From a virus, in IMG/VR virus record IMGVR_UViG_3300046787_000130, positions 64,001 through 128,000 of that record: DNA of 64,000 nt, one strand, 5' to 3'. The translations under genes were made by a program, and so were the position numbers. Below the pieces are notes generated by a model. That model saw only the letters and a program-made list of their open reading frames with translations. It was not told the origin of the DNA and ran no database searches. Shown piece after piece: positions 19,481 to 46,247 of the stretch (positions are counted from its first letter, which is position 1; each line of letters opens with the position of its first letter).

Positions 19481-20545
19481 ATGAAATTATGTATAATCGG
19501 GGACTTGCATTTCGGAATGCGAAATGATAGCCCTATCTTTCATGAACTGTATAAGAACTTCTATCAAAACACCTTGTTCCCCTATTTGGATGAGCATAAC
19601 ATCAATGCCATCTTCCAATTAGGGGACTTGTTTGATAGACGCAAGTTCATCAACTTCCATACACTTGAGCAAGTCAAGTCATACTTCTTTGATGAACTAG
19701 AATCAAGAGGCATTACGTTACATACGCTTCTTGGTAATCATGATGTTTACTGGAAGAATACGTTACAAGTAAACTCTACGTCTCTAGTATTGGGGGAGTA
19801 TGGCAACGTTGTTGTTTATGACACTCCTACTACAGTAGATTTTGGAGGTTTAGCAATAGACGTGATTCCGTGGATTTGCGAAAGTAACGAAGCCCAAGTA
19901 AAGACATTCATATCAGAAACTAGGTCTGAGGTCTGCTTAGGTCATTTCGAGTTGATAGGCTTTGAAATGGACAGAGGAAACGTCTGTCACGAAGGATTTG
20001 ACCCTTCAATGTTGTCTCGCTATGAAACAGTAATGACTGGACACTTCCATCATCCATCATCGAAGAATAACATTGTTTATGTCGGTGCGCCTGGAGAGAT
20101 GACTTGGGCTGATTACAATGACCCAAGAGGCTTCTACATCTATGATACTGATACACGAGAACTAGAATTCATCGTCAATCCGTATACAATCTTCCGTAAG
20201 ATTTTCTATAACGATGATGACTTGTTCCTTAATGATGTACAGAACAAAGACTATTCTGAGTTCAAGGGCAAGTATGTTAAGTTGGTTGTATCAAAGAAGT
20301 CTAATGTATTCTTGTTTGAAACTTTTCTCGACAACCTAACAAAGTCTGGCGCCATAGATGTTTCTGTGGTTGAAGACTTTACGGATGTCAATACATCGGA
20401 TACAATAGGAGAGGTAGACCAAGCAGATGATACTACTACCATCCTTGATAAGTATATTGATGGCATTGAGATTGATTTGAACAAGGTCAAACTGAAGAAC
20501 ATTATTAGAGATATCTACACGGAAGCATTGACTATAGAATCATGA
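19481..20545 (+). CDS. gp47: Recombination endonuclease subunit (Mre11/SbcD-like)
   Basis: D.HFG, GDLFDRR, GNHD, GHFH. Confidence 0.96.
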   Translation: MKLCIIGDLHFGMRNDSPIFHELYKNFYQNTLFPYLDEHNINAIFQLGDLFDRRKFINFHTLEQVKSYFFDELESRGITLHTLLGNHDVYWKNTLQVNSTSLVLGEYGNVVVYDTPTTVDFGGLAIDVIPWICESNEAQVKTFISETRSEVCLGHFELIGFEMDRGNVCHEGFDPSMLSRYETVMTGHFHHPSSKNNIVYVGAPGEMTWADYNDPRGFYIYDTDTRELEFIVNPYTIFRKIFYNDDDLFLNDVQNKDYSEFKGKYVKLVVSKKSNVFLFETFLDNLTKSGAIDVSVVEDFTDVNTSDTIGEVDQADDTTTILDKYIDGIEIDLNKVKLKNIIRDIYTEALTIES

Positions 20546-22254
20546 TTATATTCCAAAACATTCGATGGAAGAATTTCCTGTCTACAGGAAATGTCTTTAC
20601 TGAGTTAGCACTTAACAAGCATAGCAATACGCTGATTGTCGGTGAGAATGGCGCAGGCAAGTCTACGCTACTTGACGCTGTCACGTTTGCTTTGTTTGGT
20701 AAGCCATACCGCAACATTAACAAGCCTCAACTAGTTAACTCTATCAATAACAAGGATTGTCTTGTTGAACTAGAGTTTCAACTAGGCGAGAAGCAGTATC
20801 AGATTCGTAGAGGCATCAAGCCTAACGTGTTTGAGATTAAGTTAGATGGCGAGTTGCTTAACCAAGACTCAAAGGCTAAAGACTATCAGGACATGCTTGA
20901 GCGGTTAATCCTCAAGATGAACCATAAGTCATTTACGCAGATTGTAATCCTTGGTAGTGCTTCATTCACTCCATTTATGCAACTCAACGCAGCTGACCGT
21001 CGTGCTGTTATTGAAGACTTGCTTGACATCCAAATCTTTTCTAACATGAACTCAATCGTGAAAGATAAGGTGAATGGACTCAAGTCTGAAATTAATGAAC
21101 TCAAGATTCGACTTGATAACGTGAAAGAGAAGATTGAACTTCATAAGAAGCATATTGAGGAGATGAAGAAGAATAATCAAGAGATGATTGATGCTAAGCA
21201 GACTGAGTTTGAACAAAACATTACTGCGGTCAAGGCATATCAGGAAGACCAAGAGAAGATTCAGTCTGAAATTGAAGCACTGGTTGAGCAAGTATCTGAC
21301 CTTGTTGCCGTTAGAAGCAAGAACAACAAGTTGATTAGTTTTGAGGCTAAGATTCAACAGAACATTAGCAAAACAGAAAAAGAGTTTGAGTTCTATCACG
21401 ATAACGATAACTGCCCGACTTGTAAGCAGGTGCTAGAGTCTACCTTTAAAGGCGAAAAGATTGTTGAATGCGAACGCAAGTTTGAAGAATACAATAAGGG
21501 TCTTGAGAAGTTAAAGGCAGAGCAAGAGACTGTTACTGCAAGAATCGCAGAGATTGAAGTGGTTAATAAGACCATTTCAAGTCATCAAGCCAATGTTGCT
21601 AGGACTAGTGTTTCTGTTTCTCACCTTCAGAAGTATAATATCAACCTTCAGAAAGAAATTGAAAGGCTAAGTGAAAGCAAGAGCATTAGTGCTGATACCA
21701 AGGAAGAGTCAAAGAAACTTGTTGAAGAGTATACAGGTTACTTAGAACGTCGCAAGGTAGCAACAGAAGAGAAGCAATACTATGACATTGCTGCTCAACT
21801 ACTGAAGGATGGTGGCATCAAGGCTAAGATTATCAAGCAGTACTTGCCTGTCATCAATAAACTGGTAAATAAGTATCTTGCGTCTATGGACTTCTTTGTC
21901 AACTTTAACATTGATGAAGAGTTCAAAGAGACTATCAAGTCAAGACATCGTGATGATTTCAGTTATGAAAACTTTTCAGAAGGTGAGAAGCAGAAGATTG
22001 ACTTATCGCTACTCTTGACTTGGCGCGCGATTGCGCGTATGAAGAACAGCGTCAATACCAACTTGCTCATCCTAGATGAGACATTTGACTCAAGTCTAGA
22101 TGGTAAGGGTACTGACTCATTGCTACAGATTCTTCAGACTCTACCAGATAACACTAATGTTTTTGTTATCTCGCACAAAGACCAACTGTTTGATAAATTT
22201 GCTAACGCTATTCGCTTTGAGAAAAAGCAAAACTTTTCGAGGATTGCCCCATGA
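20542..22254 (+). CDS. gp46: Recombination endonuclease ATPase (Rad50/SbcC-like)
   Basis: GENGAGKST, CPTC hook, FSEGEK, LDE.FD. Confidence 0.96.
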   Translation: MIIFQNIRWKNFLSTGNVFTELALNKHSNTLIVGENGAGKSTLLDAVTFALFGKPYRNINKPQLVNSINNKDCLVELEFQLGEKQYQIRRGIKPNVFEIKLDGELLNQDSKAKDYQDMLERLILKMNHKSFTQIVILGSASFTPFMQLNAADRRAVIEDLLDIQIFSNMNSIVKDKVNGLKSEINELKIRLDNVKEKIELHKKHIEEMKKNNQEMIDAKQTEFEQNITAVKAYQEDQEKIQSEIEALVEQVSDLVAVRSKNNKLISFEAKIQQNISKTEKEFEFYHDNDNCPTCKQVLESTFKGEKIVECERKFEEYNKGLEKLKAEQETVTARIAEIEVVNKTISSHQANVARTSVSVSHLQKYNINLQKEIERLSESKSISADTKEESKKLVEEYTGYLERRKVATEEKQYYDIAAQLLKDGGIKAKIIKQYLPVINKLVNKYLASMDFFVNFNIDEEFKETIKSRHRDDFSYENFSEGEKQKIDLSLLLTWRAIARMKNSVNTNLLILDETFDSSLDGKGTDSLLQILQTLPDNTNVFVISHKDQLFDKFANAIRFEKKQNFSRIAP

Positions 22255-22838
22255 GTAAGATGGTTAAGTTTGTTAATGGTCATATGATTTCGTATGAAGT
22301 ACTAAAACTAGTTGATAAGTATGACCCTATCCTACATAAGCCAACAATCCCTGTTGACTTTAACAACTTACAAGAGCAGCAAATAGACACAGCTGAATTG
22401 GCTTATTCGCTTGTAGAAACTATGAATAAGTTAGGTGGTCTGGGTTTATCTGCTAATCAGGTTGGCATCCCTTATCGCGTATGTGCTATTAATGTCGGTA
22501 AGGAAGCACACATACTTTTCAACCCAAGAGTAGTCATGATTTCTGGTAATGTATCTAAGTTAAAGGAAGGCTGTTTGTCATTTCCTGGGCTTTATCTAGA
22601 AGTTGGTAGACCTGAACTGGTAACTGTTGAGTTTTACGGTATTGATGGTGCTAAGCAAATTCAAACTTATGAGGGAGTCCATGCTATTTGTGTACAGCAT
22701 GAGATTGACCACCTAGATGGTATTTGCTACACGAAGAAAGTTTCTCCATTAGTTCTTGAACGTGAGAAGAAAAAGGTCAAAAAGAACATGCGCAAAATCA
22801 AGGAAGCAGCGCAAAGAATAGCCCGAAATTCTAACTAA
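22251..22838 (+). CDS. def: Peptide deformylase
   Basis: GLGLSANQVG, EGCLS, QHEIDHLDG. Confidence 0.95.
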   Translation: MSKMVKFVNGHMISYEVLKLVDKYDPILHKPTIPVDFNNLQEQQIDTAELAYSLVETMNKLGGLGLSANQVGIPYRVCAINVGKEAHILFNPRVVMISGNVSKLKEGCLSFPGLYLEVGRPELVTVEFYGIDGAKQIQTYEGVHAICVQHEIDHLDGICYTKKVSPLVLEREKKKVKKNMRKIKEAAQRIARNSN

Positions 22839-23026: not shown

Positions 23027-25234
23027 ATGGAATTAATTCAAAGCAAATCTGTTCTTGCGCGCCTCATGGCTGCTGAGAACATCAACATTCACCACCAGAA
23101 TGTGCCCACGGCATATTTTGACCTCAAGAATCGTTCGCTTGTCCTGCCCATGTGGGGTGAGATGGACGGTTACATGTATGACCTGCTCTGCGGTCATGAG
23201 GTTGGTCACGCGCTGTACACGCCGTTTGATGGCTGGCATCACAATACGCATAGCAATCCTGCTATGAAGCCATTCCTCAATGTGATTGAGGATGCGCGCA
23301 TTGAGAAGCGCATCAAGTCAAAGTTTCCTGGGCTGTCCAAGTCATTTGCTCAGGCTTATGCTGACCTGTATGAGCGTGATTTCTTTGGCATCAAGAAGAT
23401 TGATGACCTCAATACACTGAACCTCATTGACCGCATTAACTTGTATTTCAAGTTGGGCGCGCACGTCATCGTGCCGTTCACCGATGCTGAACGTGTGTTT
23501 GTTCGTGATACCAGCAACGCTGAAACGTGGGATGACGTGGTTGAGATTGCCAACCGCGTGTATGCCTATGTCAAGCAGAATGAATCCGACAAACTGAACA
23601 GCGTTCAGGATTTGATGGACAAGTTGGCTGACATGCTACAAGATGACCTTAATGATGTTGAGTCTGATGGTCAATCTGACGATTCTATGGAGTATGATGA
23701 CGCCGAATCTGATGACAGTGAGGATGATGGCGCGTCTGGCGGCATGTCTGACGAATCTGATGGTGATGGCGACGATGATTCTGACGCTGCTGGTTCTACC
23801 GGTGACGATGAAGATTCTGAAAATAGCGAGACTCCCAGCAGCACTACCGGCATGAATGGCGGCGTCAGCGATGACAAGACGCAGACTGAACCGTCATCCA
23901 TCACGGATGATATTTTCCGTCAGCGTGAATCTGAGTTGGTGTCCAACGGCAAGGGCAACGTGTATATGTTTGACCTGCCAATCCCCAACCTGAAGAACAT
24001 TATTGTTCCTGTTGAAACCACGCTCAAAAAGTTTGAGGCTGAGGCTAATCGTTTCAATCTTGATGAGATGACGCGCCAGTCTGTTTCTGAGTTCAACTCG
24101 CGCAACAGCAAGTACATTGCTATGCTGGTCAAGGAATTTGAGATGCGCAAGAATGCCACAGAATATGCCCGTGCGCAAGTTTCTCGCAGTGGTCAACTTG
24201 ACACCAGCAAACTCCATCAGTTCAAGTTGAAGAATGACCTGTTCAAGCGGGTCACTACTATCGGCAAGGGCAAGTCTCACGGCATGCAACTGGTGTTTGA
24301 CATGTCTGGTTCGATGTATGAAATCTTCAAGGAGACTGTTGAGCAGATTCTTGTGCTTTCGGTGTTCTGTAAGCGCGTCAACATTCCGTTTGAGGTGTAT
24401 GGCTTTACTGACATTCGGCGTCTGAACCCTCATGCTGGTCAGCGTTGGACACGCGGTTATGGTGAATCTGAGGCTGCGCGTAATGCCAAGCCTACCATGT
24501 ATGGTGACCCGCATTTTAGCCTCATCAAGTACCTGTCGTCAGATATGTCGGCTAGCACATACCGTCGTGCGTTTAACATGCTTGCCACCGTTGCCATGAA
24601 GTACAACAAGCACAACAACTATTTTGGTGCTGCTATGAGTTGGGATACTGCTGGCTTTGAACTTGGTGGCACGCCACTGGCTGAGACCATGATAACCATG
24701 CGCACGCTGGCTGAACAGTTTAAGCATCGCACGGGTGTTGACCACGTCAATCTGGTCATCATGACTGACGGTGAAGGGCACGGCAACAGCACCAGTCACT
24801 CTTATAACTACGCACAAGACACTGCTTATGTTGTTGACCCGCAGAACAAGGAACGTCAGAAGATATACGGCAACCAATATGGCATAAATGAAGCCGTTGA
24901 GAAACTTGTACACAAGTCGCTGTCTCAACTAGGCATCAAGGTGATTGGCTACTACATTGCCAAGCATGCTCGCCATCTCGCGTATGCTTGCCGTAGCGTC
25001 AATGCTACTGCTATGAAGGCTGCTATCAAGAAGCAGGGATTCTTTGTTGAAACCAATCGAATTGGTTTTGACAAGTATTTCCTGCTCCCGATTGGTGAGG
25101 CTCAGGCTGAAACTATGGGTGACGTTGACGCCACAAATAAGAATGCGCTGCGCACTGCCTTCAAGCAGATGCAAAAGGGCAAGCAAGCCAACCGTGCACT
25201 CGCAACCAACTTTGCCAAGGAGATTGCACTGTAA
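23027..25234 (+). CDS. CobT-like protein: HExxH peptidase-like domain, acidic linker, VWA domain
   Basis: HEVGH, NVIEDARIE, D/E-rich linker, DMSGS MIDAS, GGTPL, TDGE. Confidence 0.85.
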   Translation: MELIQSKSVLARLMAAENINIHHQNVPTAYFDLKNRSLVLPMWGEMDGYMYDLLCGHEVGHALYTPFDGWHHNTHSNPAMKPFLNVIEDARIEKRIKSKFPGLSKSFAQAYADLYERDFFGIKKIDDLNTLNLIDRINLYFKLGAHVIVPFTDAERVFVRDTSNAETWDDVVEIANRVYAYVKQNESDKLNSVQDLMDKLADMLQDDLNDVESDGQSDDSMEYDDAESDDSEDDGASGGMSDESDGDGDDDSDAAGSTGDDEDSENSETPSSTTGMNGGVSDDKTQTEPSSITDDIFRQRESELVSNGKGNVYMFDLPIPNLKNIIVPVETTLKKFEAEANRFNLDEMTRQSVSEFNSRNSKYIAMLVKEFEMRKNATEYARAQVSRSGQLDTSKLHQFKLKNDLFKRVTTIGKGKSHGMQLVFDMSGSMYEIFKETVEQILVLSVFCKRVNIPFEVYGFTDIRRLNPHAGQRWTRGYGESEAARNAKPTMYGDPHFSLIKYLSSDMSASTYRRAFNMLATVAMKYNKHNNYFGAAMSWDTAGFELGGTPLAETMITMRTLAEQFKHRTGVDHVNLVIMTDGEGHGNSTSHSYNYAQDTAYVVDPQNKERQKIYGNQYGINEAVEKLVHKSLSQLGIKVIGYYIAKHARHLAYACRSVNATAMKAAIKKQGFFVETNRIGFDKYFLLPIGEAQAETMGDVDATNKNALRTAFKQMQKGKQANRALATNFAKEIAL

Positions 25235-25304: not shown

Positions 25305-25341
25305 TTATATATGATGAATAATTCAAGTGAGGTTTGATAGT

Positions 25342-26574
25342 ATGTACGCTCCCAATTTTACTGCTGCTGAGCAGATTGCTCTGCTGGATAAACTTGCCAA
25401 GCACTACAAGAGCAGCGAGTTGACCACCAAGCAGATTCTGGACTATGCTGATGCCAACGGCATCAAGATTCCATACTTCATTTTGAATAGCAAGACTCGC
25501 AAGGTTGGTCGTGGCTTGTTTGACGTATCCACCAGTGGCGCTGCGGCTGCTGGTTCGCGCAAGCCCAAGGCAGACGCTGCGGCATCCCCTGCCGCACCTG
25601 CCCCTGCTGCTGAGGCTCAGGTTGCGATGGTCGCGCAGGTGGTTTCTCTGCCCACCAAGCGTGCTGCCAACGTGACTGAATCCTATGTGCCTGAACTGAA
25701 TCGCACGTATGTGCCGTTTGGTTTCTTCAATGACCTGAAGAACATTATCAAGTCTGGTGTGTTCTATCCGGTGTACATCACTGGCTTGTCCGGCAACGGC
25801 AAGACATTCATGGTGGAGCAGATTTGCGCGCAACTCAAGCGTGAACTCATCCGCGTGAACATCACCAAGCGCAGCGATGAGGATGCCCTGATTGGTTCCT
25901 ATGAACTGATTGACGGCAACACCGTGCGCCGTGAAGGTCCAGTGCTGACTGCGATGCGTCGTGGTGCGGTGCTGCTGCTTGACGAAACGGACTATGGCAC
26001 TGAGGATTTGCTGTGCCTTCAGCCCATCCTTGAGGGCAAGCCATACTTCGACAAGAAGACTGGTGAGGTGATTCACCCTGCCAAGGGTTTCACCGTGCTG
26101 GCTACTGCCAACACCAAGGGCAAGGGTTCAGATGATGGTCGGTTCATCGGTGCTAACACGCTGAATGAAGCATTCCTTGAGCGTTTTGCCATCACCGTTG
26201 AGCAGGAGTACCCGCCTGTTGCGACTGAGCGCAAGATTCTGAGCAAGAATTTTGCTGAACTTAACATCAATGACGACAAGTTCATTGACCATCTCATCAC
26301 CTGGGCTGAGGTCATTCGCAAGACTTTCAATGAGGGTGGTGTTGAGGAAGTCATCAGCACGCGCCGTCTGGTTCACATTGCCAAGGCATACAGCATCTTC
26401 AAGAGCCGCAAGAAGGCTGTTGAACTCTGCCTAAACCGCTTTGACAATGAAACCAAGACGGGTTTTCTTGACCTGTACACCAAGGTTGACCCTGAAGTGA
26501 GCAGCGCAAACACCGCAGCCCCTGAAACGGCGCAGACTGAAGAACACCAGATGGATAGTGACATCCCGTTCTAA
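25342..26574 (+). CDS. MoxR/CobS-like AAA+ ATPase
   Basis: GLSGNGKT, LLLDE, ATANTKGKGS.DGRF, NEAFLERF, STRRL; GAGG RBS before ATG 25342. Confidence 0.92.
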   Translation: MYAPNFTAAEQIALLDKLAKHYKSSELTTKQILDYADANGIKIPYFILNSKTRKVGRGLFDVSTSGAAAAGSRKPKADAAASPAAPAPAAEAQVAMVAQVVSLPTKRAANVTESYVPELNRTYVPFGFFNDLKNIIKSGVFYPVYITGLSGNGKTFMVEQICAQLKRELIRVNITKRSDEDALIGSYELIDGNTVRREGPVLTAMRRGAVLLLDETDYGTEDLLCLQPILEGKPYFDKKTGEVIHPAKGFTVLATANTKGKGSDDGRFIGANTLNEAFLERFAITVEQEYPPVATERKILSKNFAELNINDDKFIDHLITWAEVIRKTFNEGGVEEVISTRRLVHIAKAYSIFKSRKKAVELCLNRFDNETKTGFLDLYTKVDPEVSSANTAAPETAQTEEHQMDSDIPF

Positions 26575-26605: not shown

Positions 26606-26673
26606 AATCTTGTTGGATGTAAATGTCACCGCATCCAACAAGGCTTTTTCTTGGTGACAAATTGGAGTTGATT

Positions 26674-26955
26674 ATGTCCGCAGTTGAATCGTTTTATACT
26701 TACCTTGCTGAAGGCAATACCGTAACCACTCGCGCTGCCCGCGCAATGTTCAAGGTTGAGCACGTCAGCACTCTAGTGTACCGTTTGCGCAATGCTGGTG
26801 TTCCGGTTTACACCAACCGCTACACGACCAGCCGTGGTGAGCGCACCTTTGCCTATCGCATTGGTCAGCCATCTGAAGCATTTGAGAATGCTCTCAGCAC
26901 TCGTCATAAGGCACGTGCTCGCAAGGCACTCTACCGTCAGGCTGTTGGCGCATAA
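26674..26955 (+). CDS. Putative winged-helix DNA-binding protein
   Basis: T...AR..F.V..VS..VY.LR..G..VY.N pattern; GGAG RBS. Confidence 0.6.
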   Translation: MSAVESFYTYLAEGNTVTTRAARAMFKVEHVSTLVYRLRNAGVPVYTNRYTTSRGERTFAYRIGQPSEAFENALSTRHKARARKALYRQAVGA

Positions 26956-26981: not shown

Positions 26982-27007
26982 GGGGGAGCAGAAATGCTCC
27001 CCTTTTT
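26982..27007 (+). terminator. Rho-independent terminator
   Basis: GGGGAGCA-GAAA-TGCTCCCC-TTTTT. Confidence 0.9.
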
Positions 27008-27063
27008 ATTTTGTATTCCACATATATAATCTATAATAAGGCTATGTGTAATGGAGATGCTGT

Positions 27064-28404
27064 ATGGTAACTGTAATTGTAGCAAAATCAAAATTGGATT
27101 GTGAACAACTGCTTGGACAGTTTGTAGATGAATCGCATTATGATGTCGTTGTAGATATGGATGTTGATTGCTACATGCCCCGTAACTGTAATGCTGCTGA
27201 GATTCTAGATTGTAACCAAGATTGCAATAATTGCGATAAAGGGCAAGATGAGAGCCGTATTGCTTTCAAGTTCAGAAAGAATTGGTTCACTAAGGAAGAA
27301 CAAGAGCAAGCCTATGAAGGGTTGCGAGATGCCGCTACACCATCAAACAATCGCGGTATTGCTGCTGGACCAAGAGGCAGTTATTCAGGCTCACGTTGGT
27401 ATGTTACTGACTATCAGCAGAAGATTCTAGACTACATTGAACAGGAACCTGAAACATCTTTCACGCCATTCAAAGATATTCTAAAAGAGATTGATGCTAA
27501 AGAATCAAAGGAGCATAGCACTCATGGCGCTGTTTGGCTCACTGCTCAGATTGAAGAAGACAAGTTTGATTTTGATAAGTGGGTCAAGCAAACTATTAAA
27601 ATGACTGTTGCTGAACGCAAAGCAGCGGCTGCTGATGTAGTCAAGAATTATATCTCAGGCACTCACTATGCTAACAAAGTCAATTCAGGTATTGCCGGAT
27701 GGTATGACCGTTATCCCCGCGCACCTTTTGGTCGCGCAACAGCATACACGCAGCATCACTATAGTAAGTTTGAAAAGTCATTTCCATTCCTACAGTCTCT
27801 GAATAGAGGTTTCAAAGAGTTGATGCCACAGCGTTGGAGCAACCAACGTAAAGCCGCTGATACACTTGACCAACGGTTCCTAGTTCCTGACACCGTGTTT
27901 ACAACCATTACAGTAAACAAGACTTTCAGAACGGCTTGCCATCGTGACGCAGGCGACTTCAATGATGGGTTGAGCAACTTGCTTGTACTGTCTAACAACG
28001 GCAAGTACAGAGGCGGCTATCTAGTGTTTCCTGAATACCGAATCGCAGTAGATGTTCGTCCCGGTGACTTATTGCTAGTTAACAATCATGAAATTATTCA
28101 CGGCAATACTCCCATTGAAACATATGATGATGGTGAGCGTATTAGCCTAGTTTGCTATTTGCGTGAAGGGATGCTTGAGTTGGGTTCTAAGGAATATGAA
28201 GATGCGCGGTTCAACTTCGTAGAAGAGCGCAAGCGTAACAAGGAACATCCTGACTGGCGCAAAGGCTGGAATGGCATCAGTCCAGGAATGTGGACACATC
28301 ATGAATGGTATGACTATCTGCGAGAGTTAGATGAGACAATGCTAGCAAAGTATCATCCTGAAGTAATAGCAACTACATCAGCATTAGATTCACTCTGGGA
28401 TTGA
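27064..28404 (+). CDS. TET/JBP-family 2OG-Fe(II) dioxygenase (nucleic-acid base hydroxylase)
   Basis: FTTITVN..FRTACHRDAGD (HxD), GGYLVFP, GDLLL.N.H..IHGNT (distal H), RISLVCY.R (2OG-binding Arg). Confidence 0.8.
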   Translation: MVTVIVAKSKLDCEQLLGQFVDESHYDVVVDMDVDCYMPRNCNAAEILDCNQDCNNCDKGQDESRIAFKFRKNWFTKEEQEQAYEGLRDAATPSNNRGIAAGPRGSYSGSRWYVTDYQQKILDYIEQEPETSFTPFKDILKEIDAKESKEHSTHGAVWLTAQIEEDKFDFDKWVKQTIKMTVAERKAAAADVVKNYISGTHYANKVNSGIAGWYDRYPRAPFGRATAYTQHHYSKFEKSFPFLQSLNRGFKELMPQRWSNQRKAADTLDQRFLVPDTVFTTITVNKTFRTACHRDAGDFNDGLSNLLVLSNNGKYRGGYLVFPEYRIAVDVRPGDLLLVNNHEIIHGNTPIETYDDGERISLVCYLREGMLELGSKEYEDARFNFVEERKRNKEHPDWRKGWNGISPGMWTHHEWYDYLRELDETMLAKYHPEVIATTSALDSLWD

Positions 28405-28405
28405 T

Positions 28406-29038
28406 ATGTGCGCAGTAATTGGAGTTGACCTCAAGAATCCTTCAATGGATGACTTGCATCTTGTTATGAATGTCTTCCTTGAATCTAAGATTCGTGGAAT
28501 GCACGCAACAGGCTTAACCTTTCTATGTGATAACAAACTAATAACATTGATTGCGCCATTGCCGGCAGATAAGTTTTCTCCGATTGAAAACCTATTAGAT
28601 ATGGTAGACAACAACGCGCTTAAACTAATTGGTCATTGTCGGTATAGCACTAGTGACCTTGAATATAATCAACCGCTATACAATAATGATGTTGCCATCG
28701 TTCATAATGGCGTTATCTCTCAGGAACTACCTGAGAACTGGGAGAAGTTGTATGGGATTACTACAAAGACTAAAAACGATAGTGAACTGTTATTGCACAC
28801 AGTCGCTGATAGTCCTCTTATGCTATGGTCTAACGCTAGCATTGCTGCTATTGAGTTGCATCGCAGCGGTGTAATGAAGGCTTATCGAAATGGTAAGCGA
28901 CCGCTGTATGTAACTGAACTAGATAATGGTGTTATCTATACGTCAACTGCTGATATCATGTACAGAGCATCTAAAGGCAGGTATGTTGCCAAGCGGCTTG
29001 ATTTTGAAGGAAAGGATTTACAGTGGACTATCGCTTAA
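28406..29038 (+). CDS. Stand-alone class II (Ntn) glutamine amidotransferase
   Basis: N-terminal M-C nucleophile, RG.HATG, GHCRYST, QP, HNGVI, DSE; no synthase domain. Confidence 0.85.
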   Translation: MCAVIGVDLKNPSMDDLHLVMNVFLESKIRGMHATGLTFLCDNKLITLIAPLPADKFSPIENLLDMVDNNALKLIGHCRYSTSDLEYNQPLYNNDVAIVHNGVISQELPENWEKLYGITTKTKNDSELLLHTVADSPLMLWSNASIAAIELHRSGVMKAYRNGKRPLYVTELDNGVIYTSTADIMYRASKGRYVAKRLDFEGKDLQWTIA

Positions 29039-30042
29039 AAGAAAATCGACGTGAAGCATTCATCCGTTGGTATGCTTGGGCATTAGAGTACAAAGACTGC
29101 GACCCTGCTGTTTGGCTTACAAACTACCTCAACAAGCGTTATGAACATAATGATGAAGAACGTATTTGGTTATGTTGGTTGTATGGTAATACTTACCAGT
29201 TGCCTACAGCATGGGTACTCAAGAATGAATTTCCAGACTATGAACTTGCTACAGTAGATAGAATCACTGCTTGGAACACTACTAACTATAAGAGACTGCG
29301 ATATCAAACTGACACCAAGTGGAACAAGGGTCATCTGCCTGCGATGTTCGCATCATATCAAGAACTAATCGGCAATCGCAGCCAACGTGAAGTGATGGAG
29401 AGTTATTATGAGGGAACACCTGAAACTAATTTTAATAGCATATGGAATCTATTTCAGAGCAGTCTCCATAAGTTTGGTCGTTATTCTTGCTGGTTCTATC
29501 TACAACATCTTCATCACACTGCTGGTCTTGATGTTGTACCTACTAATCTCATGCTCTCTGATTATAGTGGCTCCCGTTCACATCGTAACGGCTTGCTTTT
29601 CGCCCTTGGACAAGATGACAGTGTCGATGAGCGCCTTTCAAGCGCGAAATATAATAGTCTTGAGTCAGCTGCGGCAGATATTCTCATCGAAATGAAAATT
29701 CGATTCCCTAAGATACGGGATGAGATTAATTTCTTTACGATGGAAACCTGCTTGTGTTCATTCAAGAAACTATTCAGAGAGAAGCATGGACGATATCTTG
29801 GGTATTATCTTGACAGGCAATCTGAAGAGATAGTACAAGCAGAGCAAGATGGTTGGCATGGCATTGATTGGAGTGTACTATGGCAAGCGCGAAATGAGAC
29901 ACTAGACAATCGGTTGGTAGGCAGAAAAGAAATTGAGGATGAAAGGTTTACTTTTTTCCTCCGTTCAGGTAGAATAGACCGATTGGAATGGATGTTTGAT
30001 GATTCCGCTTTGCCTGTAGGCTTGGAGGCATTTTATGATTAG
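29023..30042 (+). CDS. aGPT-Pplase2-type amino acid:DNA transferase (HhH-like)
   Basis: D.DP, WLYGNTY, KFGRYSCW.YL (HhH-like), GS.SHRNGL, ETCLC.FKK, RY.GYY.DRQ. Confidence 0.75.
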   Translation: MDYRLKENRREAFIRWYAWALEYKDCDPAVWLTNYLNKRYEHNDEERIWLCWLYGNTYQLPTAWVLKNEFPDYELATVDRITAWNTTNYKRLRYQTDTKWNKGHLPAMFASYQELIGNRSQREVMESYYEGTPETNFNSIWNLFQSSLHKFGRYSCWFYLQHLHHTAGLDVVPTNLMLSDYSGSRSHRNGLLFALGQDDSVDERLSSAKYNSLESAAADILIEMKIRFPKIRDEINFFTMETCLCSFKKLFREKHGRYLGYYLDRQSEEIVQAEQDGWHGIDWSVLWQARNETLDNRLVGRKEIEDERFTFFLRSGRIDRLEWMFDDSALPVGLEAFYD

Positions 30043-30616
30043 AGTGATTGCTGTCGGGGGTGAACCTGCTACTGGCAAGACAACCCTGATGTTTAAGTTG
30101 ATTGATATGGCTGATGATTGGGTTACTTGTAAGCCTGAAAAACTTCTTGATGCCTTGTATAGCAAGACATTAAACACTTACATTCTTGGTAAGTATGAAA
30201 AGGGAAGTACATTTCAAGGTACTGATAGGTTGAGCATGGCAGTTCAGCCTGATGCCGAAAAGTTTATCAGTAGCCTTAACTATGAAGACTCTGATGTCAA
30301 TGTAATCTTTGAAGGTGATAGGTTATTCAACAGTAAATTTCTTGAGCACTGCTCCAAGAACACTAAGCGGTTTAATATCATACTGTTGCAAGTTGCCGCT
30401 GATATTGTAAAGCAGCGACACATTAACCGCAATGATACGCAAACCGAAAAATTTATAAATGGTCGCAAGACTAAACTAGACAATATCAGTAGTTCCCTAG
30501 TGTTGATGGACTATATAAGTGTAAGGGAAAACAACACTGTTGTTGACCAGCAGAAGATTATTAGTGATATTGTTAATTACTTTAAGTGGAGTGAGAATAA
30601 TGCAACTGGAATTTAA
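30035..30616 (+). CDS. P-loop nucleotide kinase (5-hydroxymethyluracil DNA kinase-like)
   Basis: GGEPATGKT, LGKY...F.GTDRLS, EGDRL; adjacent to aGPT-Pplase2. Confidence 0.75.
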   Translation: MIRVIAVGGEPATGKTTLMFKLIDMADDWVTCKPEKLLDALYSKTLNTYILGKYEKGSTFQGTDRLSMAVQPDAEKFISSLNYEDSDVNVIFEGDRLFNSKFLEHCSKNTKRFNIILLQVAADIVKQRHINRNDTQTEKFINGRKTKLDNISSSLVLMDYISVRENNTVVDQQKIISDIVNYFKWSENNATGI

Positions 30617-31397
30617 GGTTGAAGATTTGAAGAAGAAGAAATTGTTTATTGCTACGCCAATGTATGGCGGGCAGTGCTTTGGTATGTATGCAAAGTCTAC
30701 GCTAGATTTACAGGCACTTTGCATTCAGCATGGAATTGATGTTAGGTTCTCATTTATCTTTAATGAATCCCTAATCACCCGCGCAAGAAACTATCTTGTT
30801 GATGAATTCCTACGTTCAGGGTTCACTCATATGTTGTTCCTTGATGCTGATATCCATTTTGACCCGCGTGACGTTATTGCCATGCTTGGTCTTGACCGTG
30901 ATATCATTGGTGCGCCATATCCTAAGAAGAGCGTTAAGTGGTCTTCTGTAAAGGAAGCAATCAAGCGCAATCCTGATATTACTCATGCTGAACTTGAAAA
31001 GGTTACAGGTGACTTTGTGTTCAATCCAGTTCCTGGTACTGAACGCTTTCAGGTTAATCAGCCTGTTGAGGTACTTGAACTTGGAACTGGCTTCATGATG
31101 ATTAAGCGTGAAGTGTTTGAAAAGTTTGAGAAGCAGTATCCTGAACTTCGCTACAAGCCAGACCACGTTGGTCAGGCTAACTTTGATGGCGCACGTTACA
31201 TTCACGCATACTTTGACACCGTGATTGACCGTGGTAAGTCAGACCGCTATCTCTCTGAAGACTATATGTTCTGTCAGTGGTGGCGTAACATGGGTGGTCA
31301 GATTTGGCTCTGCCCGTGGATGCGTACACATCACATCGGAACCTACGCCTTCACTGGCGACTTGGCTGCTGTAGCAAACTACGTCGGCACTCTATGA
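30600..31397 (+). CDS. GT-A fold glycosyltransferase-like protein
   Basis: IATPMYGG, SLITRARN, THMLFLDADI (DxD), GTGFM.I.R.VF, SEDY.FC. Confidence 0.75.
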   Translation: MQLEFKVEDLKKKKLFIATPMYGGQCFGMYAKSTLDLQALCIQHGIDVRFSFIFNESLITRARNYLVDEFLRSGFTHMLFLDADIHFDPRDVIAMLGLDRDIIGAPYPKKSVKWSSVKEAIKRNPDITHAELEKVTGDFVFNPVPGTERFQVNQPVEVLELGTGFMMIKREVFEKFEKQYPELRYKPDHVGQANFDGARYIHAYFDTVIDRGKSDRYLSEDYMFCQWWRNMGGQIWLCPWMRTHHIGTYAFTGDLAAVANYVGTL

Positions 31398-32044
31398 TTG
31401 TAGGGCTTGTTGGCTTTATTGGGGCTGGTAAAGGTAGTGTGGCGGACATTCTTGTTGAACGCCACGACTACTTTAAAGAAAGTTTTGCCAATAGCGTCAA
31501 GGATGCGGTTTCAGCTGTATTTGGCTGGAACCGCGCTCTTCTTGAAGGTGATACACCCGAGTCACGCGCATGGAGAGAGCAGGATGATGAATTCTGGTCC
31601 AAGAAACTAGGCAAGCCATTCTCCCCAAGACTAGCCTTACAACTTATGGGCACAGAGGCAGGTCGCGATGTATTTCACCCTGACCTCTGGGTTCATACTG
31701 TTCTACGTCGGTGTGAGAATGCACCTTGGAACAACTATGTAATTGCTGATGTTCGTTTCCCTAATGAAGTCAAAGCAATTCATGACGCAGGTGGTATTAT
31801 TGTAAGAGTTAGGCGTGGTCCAGAACCTGAATGGTATAATACTGCGCTTAAAACTAATAAAAAAATTAACTACTATGGTATGGCTGAAAACTATCCTGAT
31901 GTTCACTTTAGCGAATGGGCATGGATTGGTTCTGAAATTGATTTTGAGATTAACAACAACCGTACACTAGATGACCTAATAGAAAGAGTTGACTCTTTGG
32001 TCAAACTAGTATATAATAATGACTTGACAATTGAACGAGGTTAA
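31394..32044 (+). CDS. gp1: Deoxynucleoside monophosphate kinase
   Basis: G.IGAGK, SFA..VKD, PR..LQ..GTE..R, DVRF.NE, H.SE. Confidence 0.92.
   Translation: MIVGLVGFIGAGKGSVADILVERHDYFKESFANSVKDAVSAVFGWNRALLEGDTPESRAWREQDDEFWSKKLGKPFSPRLALQLMGTEAGRDVFHPDLWVHTVLRRCENAPWNNYVIADVRFPNEVKAIHDAGGIIVRVRRGPEPEWYNTALKTNKKINYYGMAENYPDVHFSEWAWIGSEIDFEINNNRTLDDLIERVDSLVKLVYNNDLTIERG
31989..32017 (+). promoter_or_regulatory. Sigma70-type promoter for gp45
   Basis: TTGACT-17 nt-TATAAT. Confidence 0.7.
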
Positions 32045-39779: not shown

Positions 39780-40520
39780 ATGAAAGTAACCGTAATCACG
39801 GCTACTACAGGCAACCCGCTTCTTGCGGGTTGTTTGCGTTCTGTGGCAGCACAAACCCATAGAGATGTCACCCATGTTGTAGTTGGAGATGGTCCAGAAC
39901 ATTGGGAGAAGATTGACGCAATCTTTACAGATGCTGGATTTCCTAATGGGACAAATCAGTTCTATCTTGAGATTCCTTACCCTATCGGAAAAGACCGCTG
40001 GAATGCACATCGCATCTATCCAGCAGTAACCTATATGGCAGAGGGTGACTTCATCATGTATCTTGATGAGGACAATGTTCTTGAGCCTGACCATATTGAA
40101 TCCCTAATCAAGTTGGTTACAGAAAAGAATCTACATTGGGCTTATTCGCTCCGTAAGATTATTGACAAGGATGGTAACTATCTCTGTCATGATGATTGCG
40201 AGAGTCTGGGCAAGTGGGCTTCTGTACTTGACCCACGAGACTTCTTTGTAGATGTAAATTGCTACTTTGTGCGAAGGGATGTTGCTGTTGCGATTACACC
40301 TGCTTGGTACAGAAAATTCAGAGAACCGGGACAGCCTGAAGTTGACCGCGTGTTAGCGCACGTGCTGATGAATAACTTCCCACAGTATGATTGCACTTAC
40401 AATTATTCGTTGCTATATAGAGTAGGCAACACGCAGCACTCAGTGCAGAAAGAATTCTTTGAGCGTGGCAATGCCGCTATGTTGCAACGATATGATGGCA
40501 AACTTCCTTGGAAGATTTAA
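39780..40520 (+). CDS. Glycosyltransferase family 2
   Basis: SV.AQT, VVVGDG, YLDEDN (DxD). Confidence 0.88.
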   Translation: MKVTVITATTGNPLLAGCLRSVAAQTHRDVTHVVVGDGPEHWEKIDAIFTDAGFPNGTNQFYLEIPYPIGKDRWNAHRIYPAVTYMAEGDFIMYLDEDNVLEPDHIESLIKLVTEKNLHWAYSLRKIIDKDGNYLCHDDCESLGKWASVLDPRDFFVDVNCYFVRRDVAVAITPAWYRKFREPGQPEVDRVLAHVLMNNFPQYDCTYNYSLLYRVGNTQHSVQKEFFERGNAAMLQRYDGKLPWKI

Positions 40521-40521
40521 T

Positions 40522-41475
40522 ATGGCAGAACAAAGAACCTTAGTTTGCGTTTTTGCGCAAACTCGCGAACATGAATTAGTATGGAAGAATTTCAAGAAGA
40601 ACGTATTAGATGCTCTCAATGCTGACTTGGCTCTTTGTATTGCTGTACCCGATGACTATGCTTACGCTAATCCATATTGGCAGCATGCTAAGTATAAATG
40701 GACTTGTCCAGAATATGAAAACTGGATGGATGCTTTTGAGTATGCCAAAAAAATTAGTTTCCCTCAAGTTGGTGATGATTGGAAAACTGCATTAACGGTT
40801 CCTGGTAATTGGATATCACCGCTAAATGGTAATCCTGCTGGCGGCGCACTTCAAATCTTTTTTAGATGGTTGCTTTGGCAGCATCTACAAAAAGATGACA
40901 TTTTTGCGCAATATGATAGGGTTGTCTTTACGCGCTCTGATTTTATGTTCCTCTCTCCGCATCCTCCAATGGACTTGTTAAGCCAAGAGCATATTTGGCT
41001 TCCTAATGGAGAGTACTACGGTGGCGTAACAGACCGTCATGCAGTTCTTTCGAGAAAGAACGCTGAAGGATATCTTATGGGCATTATGAAAAACATAATG
41101 ACAAATACGAGCCAATTTTGTGCATGTTTGCGGGAAGCGGGAAAAAACTACGATAGACATTATGCAACTGATACTGATGACCCTAATAAGGTAATTCCTG
41201 TTGGGCTAGAGATGTCTATCAAGGTTAATTTAGATTTTGAATTTCCGGTAGATACATGTAGATTCTTTCCATATATAATGTATACGGTAAGGTCAGCTGA
41301 CGGTAAATCGCGCCATAATTATGGAACATGGTACGAAGAATTAGGCTACTTCATAAAAAGTCCTGAAGAACTGTTTAGCGCAAAAACTTACCAAGCAATT
41401 TACGTGAAACCGCAAGATTGGTATACTGTGCCAAGAGTAGAAGCCCCGCCATATTGGAACTCTACTTGGCCATGA
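40522..41475 (+). CDS. Putative glycosyltransferase-like protein (paralog A)
   Basis: QTR, YD.VV.TRSDF, GE.YGG.TDR. Confidence 0.55.
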   Translation: MAEQRTLVCVFAQTREHELVWKNFKKNVLDALNADLALCIAVPDDYAYANPYWQHAKYKWTCPEYENWMDAFEYAKKISFPQVGDDWKTALTVPGNWISPLNGNPAGGALQIFFRWLLWQHLQKDDIFAQYDRVVFTRSDFMFLSPHPPMDLLSQEHIWLPNGEYYGGVTDRHAVLSRKNAEGYLMGIMKNIMTNTSQFCACLREAGKNYDRHYATDTDDPNKVIPVGLEMSIKVNLDFEFPVDTCRFFPYIMYTVRSADGKSRHNYGTWYEELGYFIKSPEELFSAKTYQAIYVKPQDWYTVPRVEAPPYWNSTWP

Positions 41476-41498
41476 CAATATAACAAAGGTGAATTGAT

Positions 41499-42377
41499 AT
41501 GCAACAACGAACGCTAGTTTGCGTAATCTCTCAAACAAGAGAACAAGAAATTGTTTGGGATAATTTCAAGAAGAATGTACTGGATACTTTAAACGCTGAC
41601 TTAGCGTTATGTATTGCTGTATCAGACGATTATGATTACTCTAATCCATATTGGCAGAACGCCAAATACAAGTGGACATGTCCAGAGTATAAAGATTGGA
41701 CTGATGCGTTTGAGTTTGCGAGGCAAACGGATTTTCCAGAAGCAACTGATGACTGGAAGAAAATTCTAACCATCCCAAGCAACTGGATGTCGCCAATTAA
41801 CGGGTATCCTGGCGCAGGGTCTATTCTGATTTTCTTCCGTTGGTTGTTATGGCACAACTTAAAGAAAGAAGACATCTTCAAGCACTATGACCGCATCATC
41901 ATAACTCGATCAGACTTTATGTTCCTCTGTCCGCATCCTCCAATGGAACTGCTCCATCCAAATTATATTTGGGTGCCTGATGGTGAACACTATGGCGGCA
42001 TTACTGACCGTTATGCCGTCTTGTCTGAAAAAAATGCTGATGGTTACTTCAGCATCATGAAGCATATCATGACCAACACGAACAATCTATATAATACTCT
42101 CAAGCAACTGCAAGATGAAATCCAAGATGAAATAAATCTGGAAAAGTCTGTTATGAAAGTTTTAGAGTTTGAGTTTGGTCCTAACATATGCAGATTCTTT
42201 CCATATATAATGTATTCCGTTAGGTCTAAGGAAGGAAAAACCCGATGGCAAAGTGGTTACTGGGTTGAGGAATTAGGTTACTACATTAAGTATCCCTCAG
42301 AATTCGAACGCGCACAATTCTTTCAACAAATTATCGTAAAGCCAGAAGATTGGTATCGTATAGCGAGGCAAGAATGA
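41499..42377 (+). CDS. Putative glycosyltransferase-like protein (paralog B)
   Basis: Collinear, highly similar to the preceding ORF. Confidence 0.55.
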   Translation: MQQRTLVCVISQTREQEIVWDNFKKNVLDTLNADLALCIAVSDDYDYSNPYWQNAKYKWTCPEYKDWTDAFEFARQTDFPEATDDWKKILTIPSNWMSPINGYPGAGSILIFFRWLLWHNLKKEDIFKHYDRIIITRSDFMFLCPHPPMELLHPNYIWVPDGEHYGGITDRYAVLSEKNADGYFSIMKHIMTNTNNLYNTLKQLQDEIQDEINLEKSVMKVLEFEFGPNICRFFPYIMYSVRSKEGKTRWQSGYWVEELGYYIKYPSEFERAQFFQQIIVKPEDWYRIARQE

Positions 42378-43600
42378 TTACAAAAAGTGAACACCTATCT
42401 ACCTGTTTAATTACTGGTAGCCCAGTACAGAAGATACTTGATTTAGGTCAGCATGCGTATGCAGATACCTTCATAGCAGAAAATCAACTTGATTTGTCTG
42501 AGCCAGTATTCCCACTACAATTGTTTATGAACTCAGATTCAGGTTCAATTCAACTTGGTTACGTTAGCAAGGCTGAAGACCGCTACAATCTATACGGATA
42601 CAGTTACACCTCAAGCAACTCTCAAACATCAAGAAATCATTGGACTGAATATGCTACGACAATACAGGAGAAGTATCCATCTCCTAAACTAGCAGTAGAG
42701 ATTGGAAGCAATGATGGATATCTAATCAATCAGTTTAAGTCAACAGCCAAGAGAGTGCTTGGAGTAGACTCATCTGAAGAAATGTGCAATCTTGCCAACG
42801 CAAATCATATTCCAACCATCTGCAATTTGTTTGATGAGACTGTTGCAGATAGTATTCGCGAAGAGTATGGTGAAGCCGATATTATCATGGCTAACAATGT
42901 TTTCAATCATGCTAACAATCCAGTTGGGTTTGCTAGAGGCGTATTGAAACTGTTGTCTGCTAATGGCGTGTTTGTATTTGAGGTTCCATCTTGGGCTGAG
43001 ATGGTTACTAGCAACCGATTTGTTGATATGGTATACCATGAACACATCAGTTACTTTACTGTGCGGAGTTGCTGGAATCTACTACAAGCCGCTGGTCTAG
43101 ACATCGTTGATTTTAATGTTGTAAATTATCATGGTGGTAGTCTTAGAATTGAAGCAAAGAAGTCTACTGGGACGGGCATCATGCCCAAGAAGGTTGCTGA
43201 TGCAATTCAAAAAGAAATTGAACTGGGGCTATTTGACGTTAACTTCTATACAACATTTCAGCAAAAGTTAGAGCGCGATAGAAATGCTTGGTTGAACAAG
43301 TTCTATCAGATTCTAAATGATGAACCAGATGCCGTAATAATCGGTGTTGGAGCAGCAGCAAAGGCTAACACTTGGCTCAACTGGCATCGACTAGATAAGA
43401 CATTACTGCGTTGTATTACTGATGCATCTCAGTTTAAGCAAGGTAAGTATACGCCACTAACCCGCATCCCTATTGTCGATGACTCTGAATTTGCTAAGTA
43501 TGATAAGCCATATGCGCTGGTTTTGAGTTGGAACATTGGAGATGCTCTAAAGGCTGCACTATTGAAAATTAATCCAAACGTGAGGTTCATTTCGCAATGA
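42374..43600 (+). CDS. NDP-sugar C-methyltransferase (TylCIII/TcaB9/NovU family)
   Basis: EIGSNDG, ANNVF.H, YHEH.SYF, HGGSLR, GAAAK, KQGKYTP..IPI, LSWN. Confidence 0.88.
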   Translation: MITKSEHLSTCLITGSPVQKILDLGQHAYADTFIAENQLDLSEPVFPLQLFMNSDSGSIQLGYVSKAEDRYNLYGYSYTSSNSQTSRNHWTEYATTIQEKYPSPKLAVEIGSNDGYLINQFKSTAKRVLGVDSSEEMCNLANANHIPTICNLFDETVADSIREEYGEADIIMANNVFNHANNPVGFARGVLKLLSANGVFVFEVPSWAEMVTSNRFVDMVYHEHISYFTVRSCWNLLQAAGLDIVDFNVVNYHGGSLRIEAKKSTGTGIMPKKVADAIQKEIELGLFDVNFYTTFQQKLERDRNAWLNKFYQILNDEPDAVIIGVGAAAKANTWLNWHRLDKTLLRCITDASQFKQGKYTPLTRIPIVDDSEFAKYDKPYALVLSWNIGDALKAALLKINPNVRFISQ

Positions 43601-46244: not shown

Positions 46245-46247
46245 TTT

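Follow-up and report, generated by a model that had tools for sequence, protein, structure and literature searches.

The window analyzed in this study is a stretch of 64,000 nucleotides (nt), positions 64001-128000 of the 161,237-bp IMG/VR record IMGVR_UViG_3300046787_000130, which belongs to a T4-like uncultured phage and is estimated to be 96% complete. On balance, four adjacent genes in this window probably encode the minimal form of a post-replicative thymidine hypermodification operon, in which thymine (T) in DNA would be oxidized to 5-hydroxymethyluracil (5hmU), phosphorylated to 5-phosphomethyluracil and then converted with glutamine-derived ammonia to 5-aminomethyl-2'-deoxyuridine (5-NmdU). 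They encode a TET/JBP-family dioxygenase (TET), a class-II glutamine amidotransferase (GATase) of the N-terminal nucleophile (Ntn) type, an amino acid:DNA transferase (AADT) and a P-loop kinase, and are followed by a gene for a glycosyltransferase (GT)-like protein. An earlier note on this DNA had described these five coupled plus-strand open reading frames (ORFs) with their motifs, directly before the genes for a deoxynucleoside monophosphate (dNMP) kinase and the clamp, and all are present as described:

27064-28404, + strand: TET/JBP-family dioxygenase, 446 aa (Pfam Tet_JBP)
28406-29038, + strand: class-II (Ntn) GATase, 210 aa (Pfam GATase_6), after a 1-nt gap from the TET gene
29023-30042, + strand: AADT (aGPT-Pplase2), 339 aa (Pfam ADDT), overlapping the GATase gene by 16 nt
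30035-30616, + strand: P-loop kinase, 193 aa (Ploopntkinase3), overlapping the AADT gene by 8 nt
30600-31397, + strand: GT-A-like protein, 265 aa (phrog_1574), overlapping the kinase gene by 17 nt

Family assignments were judged against the curated Pfam cut-offs (Tet_JBP 34.9; GATase_6 27; ADDT 26.2; Ploopntkinase3 27; Anp1 28.8), and residue invariance in 20-sequence alignments. The protein encoded at 27064, which had been proposed as a TET/JBP enzyme, matches Tet_JBP (PF12851) well above the cut-off (82.6 bits, E 2.4e-23; 85.4 bits in a six-frame search of the genome). Its catalytic residues are intact, the iron triad H293-x-D295/H346 and the 2-oxoglutarate (2OG)-binding R359 being invariant in 20 homologues. 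A single-sequence search of the PDB with this protein gave no hits. Its AlphaFold2 (AF2) model, with a predicted local distance difference test score (pLDDT) of 78.8, aligns with hTET2 at Z 20.7 (258 residues aligned, root-mean-square deviation 3.1) and with the other TET-type structures CcTet, CMD1 and NgTET1 at Z 18.0, 17.7 and 17.2, respectively, compared with Z 13.0 for the best non-TET structures, which are generic 2OG oxygenases. Foldseek also matched the model to NgTET1 at E 1.3e-8. Because the structural alignments cover residues 1-384, the first ~200 residues are considered part of the TET-type fold, which in this protein carries a large helical insert (~residues 90-200). For the same reason, namely that the TET2 and NgTET1 alignments span this whole region, a reading of residues 1-200 as a fused ParB-like activator was rejected; a language-model lookup of residues 1-205 gave a weak pointer, to Tet_JBP clusters only. 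The protein also has a Cys-rich loop (~residues 36-60; C-x4-C...C-x3-C-x2-C; pLDDT ~53), which is cleanly deleted in three homologues (L040, L051 and L043) and kept in some others, and which may be an optional metal-binding insert.

The gene content of the genome bears on the substrate of this enzyme. The lack of a hydroxymethylase and of a C5-methyltransferase, first noticed within the window, holds for the whole 96%-complete record: no ThyA-family enzyme was found in it, and hence no dUMP or dCMP hydroxymethylase, and C5-methyltransferase (PF00145) had no match in the genome, where N6/N4-methyltransferases were not found either. A ThyX is encoded, and the six-frame search found only one TET gene. 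The presence of ThyX together with the lack of a hydroxymethylase and a C5-methyltransferase favors oxidation of T in DNA over oxidation of 5-methylcytosine (5mC) and would leave it as the sole visible route to 5hmU in this genome. The same reasoning was used by Lee et al. 2021 for similar contigs (PMC8989533), and phage TET_JBP enzymes without a neighboring C5-methyltransferase were found to convert T to 5hmU in vivo and in vitro (PMC13229309). The TET of this phage is thus a probable thymine dioxygenase producing 5hmU in DNA.

The product of the ORF at 29023 is likewise assigned to the family that had been proposed for it. It matches ADDT/aGPT-Pplase2 (PF18724) above the cut-off (77.8 bits, E 1.3e-21), a model that scores 97.1 bits with gp46 of phage PaMx11 and 195.2 bits with the ViI-like Det7 protein, and it is 30% identical to the ViI-like AADTs. 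The catalytic motif is intact and reads M-E241-T242-C-L-C245-S-F-K248; compared directly, the PaMx11 gp46 counterpart V-E243-T244-I-L-C247-K-W-K has identical spacing. E241-T242-x-x-C245 is invariant in the alignments, and E241 and C245 are invariant even against the proteins of Caulobacter phage Cr30 and the fusion proteins described below. Outside the motif the similarity to PaMx11 gp46 is very low: in an hhalign comparison with the AADT profile it reached E 0.19, the alignment stopping short of the catalytic motif, and profile searches of the PDB returned chance matches only (E 0.06-0.5) without retrieving PaMx11 gp46, while a single-sequence PDB search gave no hits. The FGPW helix reads FGRY in the AADT of the window, and, in a low-confidence alignment, the glycine-binding Trp146 and Lys150 of gp46 correspond to Tyr154 and Phe158. 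A Tyr at the Trp146 position is also present in the putrescine-using enzyme of PhiW-14. These changed pocket residues are weakly consistent with a nucleophile other than glycine, for example ammonia.

Downstream of the AADT gene lies the P-loop kinase gene, an arrangement found in all 61 loci that offer 1.3 kb or more of sequence. The kinase assignment of the earlier note is borne out by a marginal Ploopntkinase3 match, just above the cut-off (28.3 bits against 27), and by the Walker A motif GEPATGKTT at residues 9-17. The protein shares 42% identity with a Cr30 protein and is weakly similar (24% identity, E 8e-4) to the proven kinase gp49 of PaMx11. It is presumed to be a 5hmU-DNA kinase.

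The second gene encodes a stand-alone PurF-type Ntn domain without a synthase domain. Its GATase_6 match (45.4 bits, E 1e-11) exceeds the cut-off, and in a profile comparison with the PDB it aligned with the glutaminase domains of PurF, in agreement with the earlier assignment as an Ntn-Cys amidotransferase. Intact catalytic residues are found at all expected positions, with M1-C2, R30-G31, R79-Y-S-T, H100-N101-G102 and N124-D125-S-E invariant in 20 sequences and comprising the Cys2 nucleophile, the glutamine-binding Arg, the Asn-Gly oxyanion hole and the Asp. None of the papers in the literature searched assigns a function to these GATases, and for GATase-linked clusters Lee et al. 2021 stated that the "functions are not yet known" (PMC8989533).

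A link between the GATase and the AADT is provided by natural gene fusions. A search for longer AADT relatives recovered nine proteins of 608-646 aa with an N-terminal GATase and a C-terminal AADT, in which the N-terminal domain has Met-Cys as its first two residues and shares 34% identity with the GATase of the window (E 5e-21). With an alignment as query, fusion genes of ~620-660 aa were located on four IMG/VR contigs, whereas the single fusion protein P0004 as query found none:

L086:7944-9932, GATase-AADT fusion gene
L087:8001-9878, GATase-AADT fusion gene
L088:1909-3765, GATase-AADT fusion gene
L089:7488-9368, GATase-AADT fusion gene

In L086 and L088 the fusion gene stands directly before genes for a 5-hydroxymethyl-deoxyuridine (5-hmdU) DNA kinase (PF18748) and HMUDK_hel (PF18723), and the context of the fusion loci also includes a ThyA-like enzyme and an HD phosphohydrolase (in L086). 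Such surroundings are typical of the classical systems in which 5hmU is made before replication. The position of the fusion beside a kinase and a ThyA-like enzyme suggests that GATase and AADT form one unit acting on 5hmU from either source, that is, one functional unit on 5hmU-derived DNA however the 5hmU is made. In PurF, GlmS and AsnB, an N-terminal Ntn glutaminase is likewise joined to a C-terminal acceptor domain, to which it delivers ammonia.

From the protein families and their intact catalytic residues, the synteny, the GATase-AADT fusion and the absence of other 5hmU or 5mC sources, we infer the following scheme, including each enzymatic activity, T as the substrate, NH3 as the nucleophile and the product formed. 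The phage would make ordinary dTTP through ThyX and replicate T-containing DNA, in which the TET would then hydroxylate a subset of thymines to 5hmU, apparently without a ParB activator. The P-loop kinase would phosphorylate the hydroxymethyl group to give 5-phosphomethyl-dU. Cys245 of the AADT would attack C6, so that the phosphate is expelled and an exocyclic methylene forms, and the Ntn glutaminase would hydrolyze glutamine to supply ammonia as the nucleophile, giving 5-NmdU as the product. Relatives with a GNAT acetyltransferase would convert this amine further, to an N-acyl derivative such as 5-acetylaminomethyl-dU; as this phage lacks a GNAT, the free amine would be its end product. The order proposed in the earlier note, in which TET, kinase and aGPT-Pplase2 act in turn with an N-nucleophile in the last step, is thereby supported by the families, the residues and the gene absences, with T favored over 5mC as the substrate, while the glycosylation that it allowed as a later step is doubtful, as discussed below. 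More specifically, we put forward, as a proposal with an even chance of being correct, that the GATase and AADT, whether split or fused, constitute a glutamine-dependent DNA amidotransferase that converts 5-phosphomethyluracil directly to 5-aminomethyluracil, is fed by a ParB-free long-form TET and leaves a free primary amine on a subset of virion thymines, all after replication.

To place the cassette in a wider context, IMG/VR was scanned with the AADT, which gave 220 relatives, of which 80 with 69-97% identity were kept and the window proteins mapped on them. The TET and GATase genes lie upstream of the AADT gene in all 23 loci with enough sequence. In the lineage of the window the order is CobS-wHTH-TET-GATase-x-AADT-kinase-GT-dNMPK-gp45, in the slot gp46...gp45 (wHTH, winged-helix protein; dNMPK, dNMP kinase), and in a second lineage it is UvsX-gp41 helicase-TET-GATase-x-AADT-(141 aa)-kinase, with no GT. 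The two different backbone slots suggest that the four genes travel as a module, and the cassette thus appears to have moved between two T4-like backbones. Its gene order is found again in ~80 independent IMG/VR loci and is far from a chance arrangement.

Between GATase and AADT, 58 of the 59 loci carry accessory genes in an insert 0.63-3.1 kb long. The most frequent type of insert consists of just one gene, for a GNAT acetyltransferase, and the single-gene inserts that were tested all encode GNATs; overall, a GNAT is found in 66 related loci and an Amidoligase_2-like gene in 36. Further inserts comprise a GT1, a low-molecular-weight (LMW) phosphatase and a 433-aa protein of no recognized family, and single loci carry an extra 2OG oxygenase or a tryptophan-halogenase-like flavoprotein. 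The overlap of the GATase and AADT genes is confined to the window and its 97% twin L006, whose proteins are 86-97% identical to those of the window across the gene set. None of the accessory genes of the relatives (GNAT, amidoligase and others) is present anywhere in the genome of the window. The four genes of the window therefore appear to be the core, reduced to its minimum, of a cassette that occurs in 80 or more phage loci from the environment.

The accessory genes also bear on the nucleophile. Only one GNAT from pathways of this class has been characterized, PaMx11 gp48, which acts on 5-NmdU by acetylating its primary amine (PMC8989533), and the nearly constant addition of a GNAT in the relatives would fit an ammonia nucleophile and an amine product. 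The GNATs of the relatives have no meaningful pairwise similarity to PaMx11 gp48, and the analogy holds at the family level only. The assignment of glutamine-derived ammonia leading to 5-aminomethyl-dU, which is testable, rests on the natural fusion and on this near-universal GNAT in the relatives.

Several inserts were inspected individually. The insert at L007:1584-4094 encodes, from GATase to AADT, a GT1, an Amidoligase_2 protein and an LMW phosphotyrosine-phosphatase-like protein, and that at L013:3251-5944 encodes an amidoligase-like protein, a GNAT and the 433-aa protein, which has no Pfam match and occurs in 22 loci. In the second lineage, a 2OG-Fe(II) oxygenase (PF13759) is encoded between TET and GATase at L019:4061-4657, and a 524-aa tryptophan-halogenase-like flavoprotein between AADT and kinase at L036:2724-4298; these extra redox enzymes hint at further undescribed decorations. 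Among cultured phages, the cluster had no match by megablast, and Caulobacter phage Cr30 (L002, KF301602.1; 7001-13474) encodes a 45%-identical TET. Within 5 kb of this TET are genes for a dGTP_diPhyd_N protein, a 409-aa AADT, a protein with a weak match to the TET-associated GT (TAGT) family and an inositol-1-phosphate synthase, and the 42%-identical kinase is encoded 5 kb further on (51815-52321 of the record); Cr30 has no GATase and may make a different thymidine hypermodification.

Several observations weigh against the proposed pathway. The published GATase-linked TETs of the clade C1 subclass are ParB-dependent and ~290-300 aa long, and ParB-less members of this clade were inactive in assays in E. 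coli (PMC13229309), whereas the TET of the window has 446 aa and a large insert; ParB_N (PF02195) has no match at E <= 0.1 anywhere in its genome, and no ParB is encoded in the cassette neighborhoods of either lineage. The proven 5-hmdU kinases belong to other families, PF18747 for the ViI type and, weakly, PF18748 for PaMx11 gp49, so the substrate of the kinase is taken solely from its context. The GATase gene adjoins the TET gene rather than the AADT gene in the relatives, where 0.63-3.1 kb separates it from the latter, and its product, being an Ntn domain that stands alone, could instead be a gamma-glutamyl amidohydrolase. Finally, the genome has lost nearly all GATC, GGCC and AGCT sites, which suggests that the modification does not protect the DNA throughout and is probably partial; this fits with published work on phage enzymes, whose T oxidation was partial and sequence-selective (PMC13229309).

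The site counts behind the last point were obtained for palindromes in the whole genome against an order-2 Markov expectation, and gave 2 GATC sites against 580 expected, 9 GGCC against 272 and 63 AGCT against 557. The survival of AGCT in CAGCTG (57 of the 63 sites) was considered as a sign of TG-specific thymine modification by the cassette, a reading that was rejected: in the 79 related cassette loci GATC is not purged and AGCT is not confined to CAGCTG, so the pattern reflects the host of this phage and is no property of the cassette.

Among the alternatives, the one that survives best concerns the fifth gene of the run. It is possible, though we think it unlikely, that the GT-A-like protein is a true pathway member that glycosylates 5hmU, as in base J, or the amine, giving a glycosylated or mixed base. 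Its gene is coupled translationally to the kinase gene by the 17-nt overlap and follows it in all loci of the window's lineage. Stenotrophomonas phage DLP6 encodes a TET and this GT within 2 kb, with no AADT, and GTs are the commonest neighbors of phage 5mYOX enzymes (31%; PMC13229309). A nine-gene nucleoside diphosphate (NDP)-sugar operon also lies 8 kb downstream. This operon (39780-46961) encodes a GT2, two proteins of no assigned family, an NDP-hexose C-methyltransferase (Methyltransf_14), a cupin, a short-chain dehydrogenase/reductase, a UDP-glucose dehydrogenase, an NAD-dependent epimerase/dehydratase and one more protein of no assigned family, and could feed DNA or surface glycosylation.

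The distribution of the GT-like gene argues against membership in the pathway. Homologues occur in 64 cultured phage records, mostly without a TET, which is present in 9 records. Sinorhizobium phage phiM12, which encodes a canonical ThyA and lacks a TET, has the order gp46-GT-gp45, and in cyanophage ACG-2014f, one of many cyanophages with homologues, the neighbors of the gene encode tail-collar and surface proteins. Of 52 loci, 26 have the GT after the kinase, and each of these belongs to the window's lineage; the second cassette lineage lacks the GT. The protein itself matches phrog_1574 (3.7e-62) and has an invariant D82-A-D84 (DxD) motif among its homologues, but its Anp1 match is below the cut-off (23.3 bits), as it is in 13 of 13 homologues; it has no match to the TET-associated GT family, its profile gave no sequence hits in the PDB, and its AF2 model (pLDDT 54) is too low in confidence for a fold search. 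Because it is present in TET-less relatives and absent from the second lineage, the GT is probably not a dedicated pathway member, and it is best seen as a backbone gene beside which the cassette was inserted.

A less likely alternative keeps the same backbone of the pathway but has the AADT install an amino acid or a gamma-glutamyl compound, with the Ntn domain acting later as an amidohydrolase in the manner of EgtC/YafJ. The domain could then trim the adduct or deamidate an appended glutamine, and the base could be a glutamyl-thymine, or 5-NmdU reached by another route. All characterized AADTs use amino acids or putrescine, and conservation of the glutamine-binding residues is expected under an amidohydrolase role just as under a glutaminase role. 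The Amidoligase_2-like gene of the 36 related loci also speaks for this alternative. Members of the amidoligase family reportedly partner with Ntn amidohydrolases in the gamma-glutamyl chemistry of other systems, as Iyer et al. are said to have described in 2009. However, the window has no amidoligase, the N-terminal position of the glutaminase relative to the AADT in the natural fusion is the layout of ammonia-transferring enzymes, and the PaMx11 gp46 residues that hold the glycine carboxylate and amine are not kept in the AADT.

It is very improbable that the TET acts on 5mC made by the host or by an undetected methyltransferase, with the kinase and AADT building a cytosine hypermodification. 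Characterized clade A/B phage TETs do act on 5mC, Burke et al. 2021 raised the idea that, in some contigs, P-loop kinases could phosphorylate 5-hydroxymethylcytosine (PMC8256090), and 4% of the genome is unseen, but the seen part has no C5-methyltransferase, all characterized AADTs act on 5-phosphomethyluracil, the fusion loci carry ThyA-like genes of the dUMP-hydroxymethylase type and no methyltransferases, and a C5-methyltransferase occurs in only 6% of 5mYOX pathways (PMC13229309). That the cluster is a decaying, functionless remnant or acts on something besides phage DNA is scarcely credible, since, although the window and L006 are the only form without GNAT and other accessory genes and the genome leans heavily on restriction-site avoidance, the four ORFs are intact with all catalytic residues conserved, the tight translational coupling is preserved and L006 has kept its high protein identity to the window.

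The proposed four-enzyme pathway can be compared with known systems. The combination of TET/JBP, kinase, AADT and GATase is already known, as is the T-dioxygenase step in homologues. Lee et al. 2021 described metavirome contigs with TET_JBP, 5-HMUDK and aGPT-Pplase2 and no dUMP hydroxymethylase (PMC8989533; Fig. 2 sequences 22-25), and O'Toole et al. 2026 (PNAS) demonstrated the conversion of T to 5hmU by phage T-dioxygenases that are "consistently linked" with GATases, P-loop kinases and AADTs (PMC13229309). 5-aminomethyl-dU, moreover, is a known intermediate of phage PaMx11 (PMC8989533). The view of the earlier note, that this exact gene set lacks a characterized pathway and that the base may be new, was therefore overstated. 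Like those clusters, the present one consists of the same families in an uncultured IMG/VR contig, with neither a dUMP hydroxymethylase nor a neighboring C5-methyltransferase, and its TET is proposed, as was shown for representatives, to oxidize T in DNA and so supply the kinase and AADT with 5hmU. It differs from them in having neither the GNAT nor the other accessory genes present in nearly every relative. What is added here is the evidence from the fusions, a minimal core of four genes, the mobility of the cassette between two backbones and a long-form TET without ParB.

With PaMx11 gp46-gp49 (structures in PMC11472151), the cluster shares the E-T-x-L-C-x-aromatic-K motif and the adjacent P-loop kinase; the 5-NmdU intermediate of PaMx11 corresponds to the proposed product, and the amine-acetylating GNAT of PaMx11 is matched by the GNAT of the window's relatives. 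In PaMx11, however, 5hmU is made before replication by a ThyA-like hydroxymethylase, and the amine arises in two steps, glycine transfer followed by the flavin adenine dinucleotide (FAD)-dependent lyase gp47, whereas here 5hmU would come from the TET and ammonia would be added directly, with no FAD lyase. Trypanosomatid base J, made by JBP1/2 and JGT, likewise starts with post-replicative T oxidation by a TET/JBP enzyme followed by decoration of the hydroxymethyl group, but there the hydroxyl is glucosylated directly, whereas here it would be phosphorylated and then replaced by nitrogen, and the GT-like neighbor is probably unrelated.

The GATase resembles the glutaminases of PurF, GlmS and AsnB in its N-terminal Cys, R-Y-S-T, H-N-G and D-S/T-E motifs and in being coupled to an acceptor enzyme, to which it is fused in some phages. 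In the MnmEG ammonium pathway, ammonia is added at the C5 exocyclic methylene of uracil. The latter reaction, which leads to nm5U in tRNA (also discussed in PMC8989533), parallels the ammonia addition proposed here. In contrast to all of these enzymes, the GATase would pass ammonia to a base in double-stranded DNA that is bound by the AADT, and an amidotransferase with a DNA base as acceptor was not found described in the literature searched. If the proposal is correct, this would be the first amidotransferase with a base in polymerized DNA as the ammonia acceptor, extending amidotransferase chemistry to DNA and bypassing the glycine and FAD-lyase route of PaMx11. Thymidine hypermodifications shield phage DNA from restriction and CRISPR nucleases, and their enzymes serve site-selective DNA functionalization; four enzymes that place a primary amine on thymine in ordinary DNA after replication would be useful for DNA labeling.

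The cassette is set in a well-defined transcriptional and genomic context, in which the following features flank the genes listed above:

20542-22254: gp46-like SMC/Rad50 gene, upstream neighbor of the cluster
22251-22838: peptide deformylase gene, upstream neighbor
23027-25234: CobT-like gene, 735 aa (phrog_459)
25327-26574: CobS-like AAA gene, 415 aa (AAA_5/CbbQ_C)
26623-26955: gene for a small winged-helix (wHTH) protein, 110 aa, directly before the cluster
26982-27012, + strand: predicted intrinsic terminator with a 9-bp GC-rich stem and a T-run, after the wHTH gene
31394-32044, + strand: T4 gp1-like dNMP kinase gene (phrog_139 1.1e-44, Pfam DNMK), sharing an ATGA overlap with the GT-like gene
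31989-32017, + strand: predicted sigma-70-like promoter TTGACT-17-TATAAT (11/12 positions), just before gp45
32047 (start): gp45 clamp gene, following the dNMP kinase gene

The terminator would form the 5' boundary of the transcription unit, and between it and the ATG at 27064 there are a TATAAT-like box and a GGAG ribosome site. Among the six genes between the terminator and the gp45 promoter, neighbors overlap by 4-17 nt or are 1 nt apart, and the promoter is the likely 3' limit of the exclusive transcript of the unit. The dNMP kinase gene, the last of this coupled run, is a backbone gene and provides context only. The AADT gene was assigned a GTG start because its homologues begin at the same MDYR residues, and for the GT-like gene the ATG at 30600 was preferred over the TTG at 30540, since in the long ORF phrog_1574 is matched only from residue 21 onward. 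The pair of CobT-like and CobS-like genes directly upstream is common in marine and freshwater T4-like phages, and the 110-aa wHTH protein is kept beside the TET in the lineage of the window.

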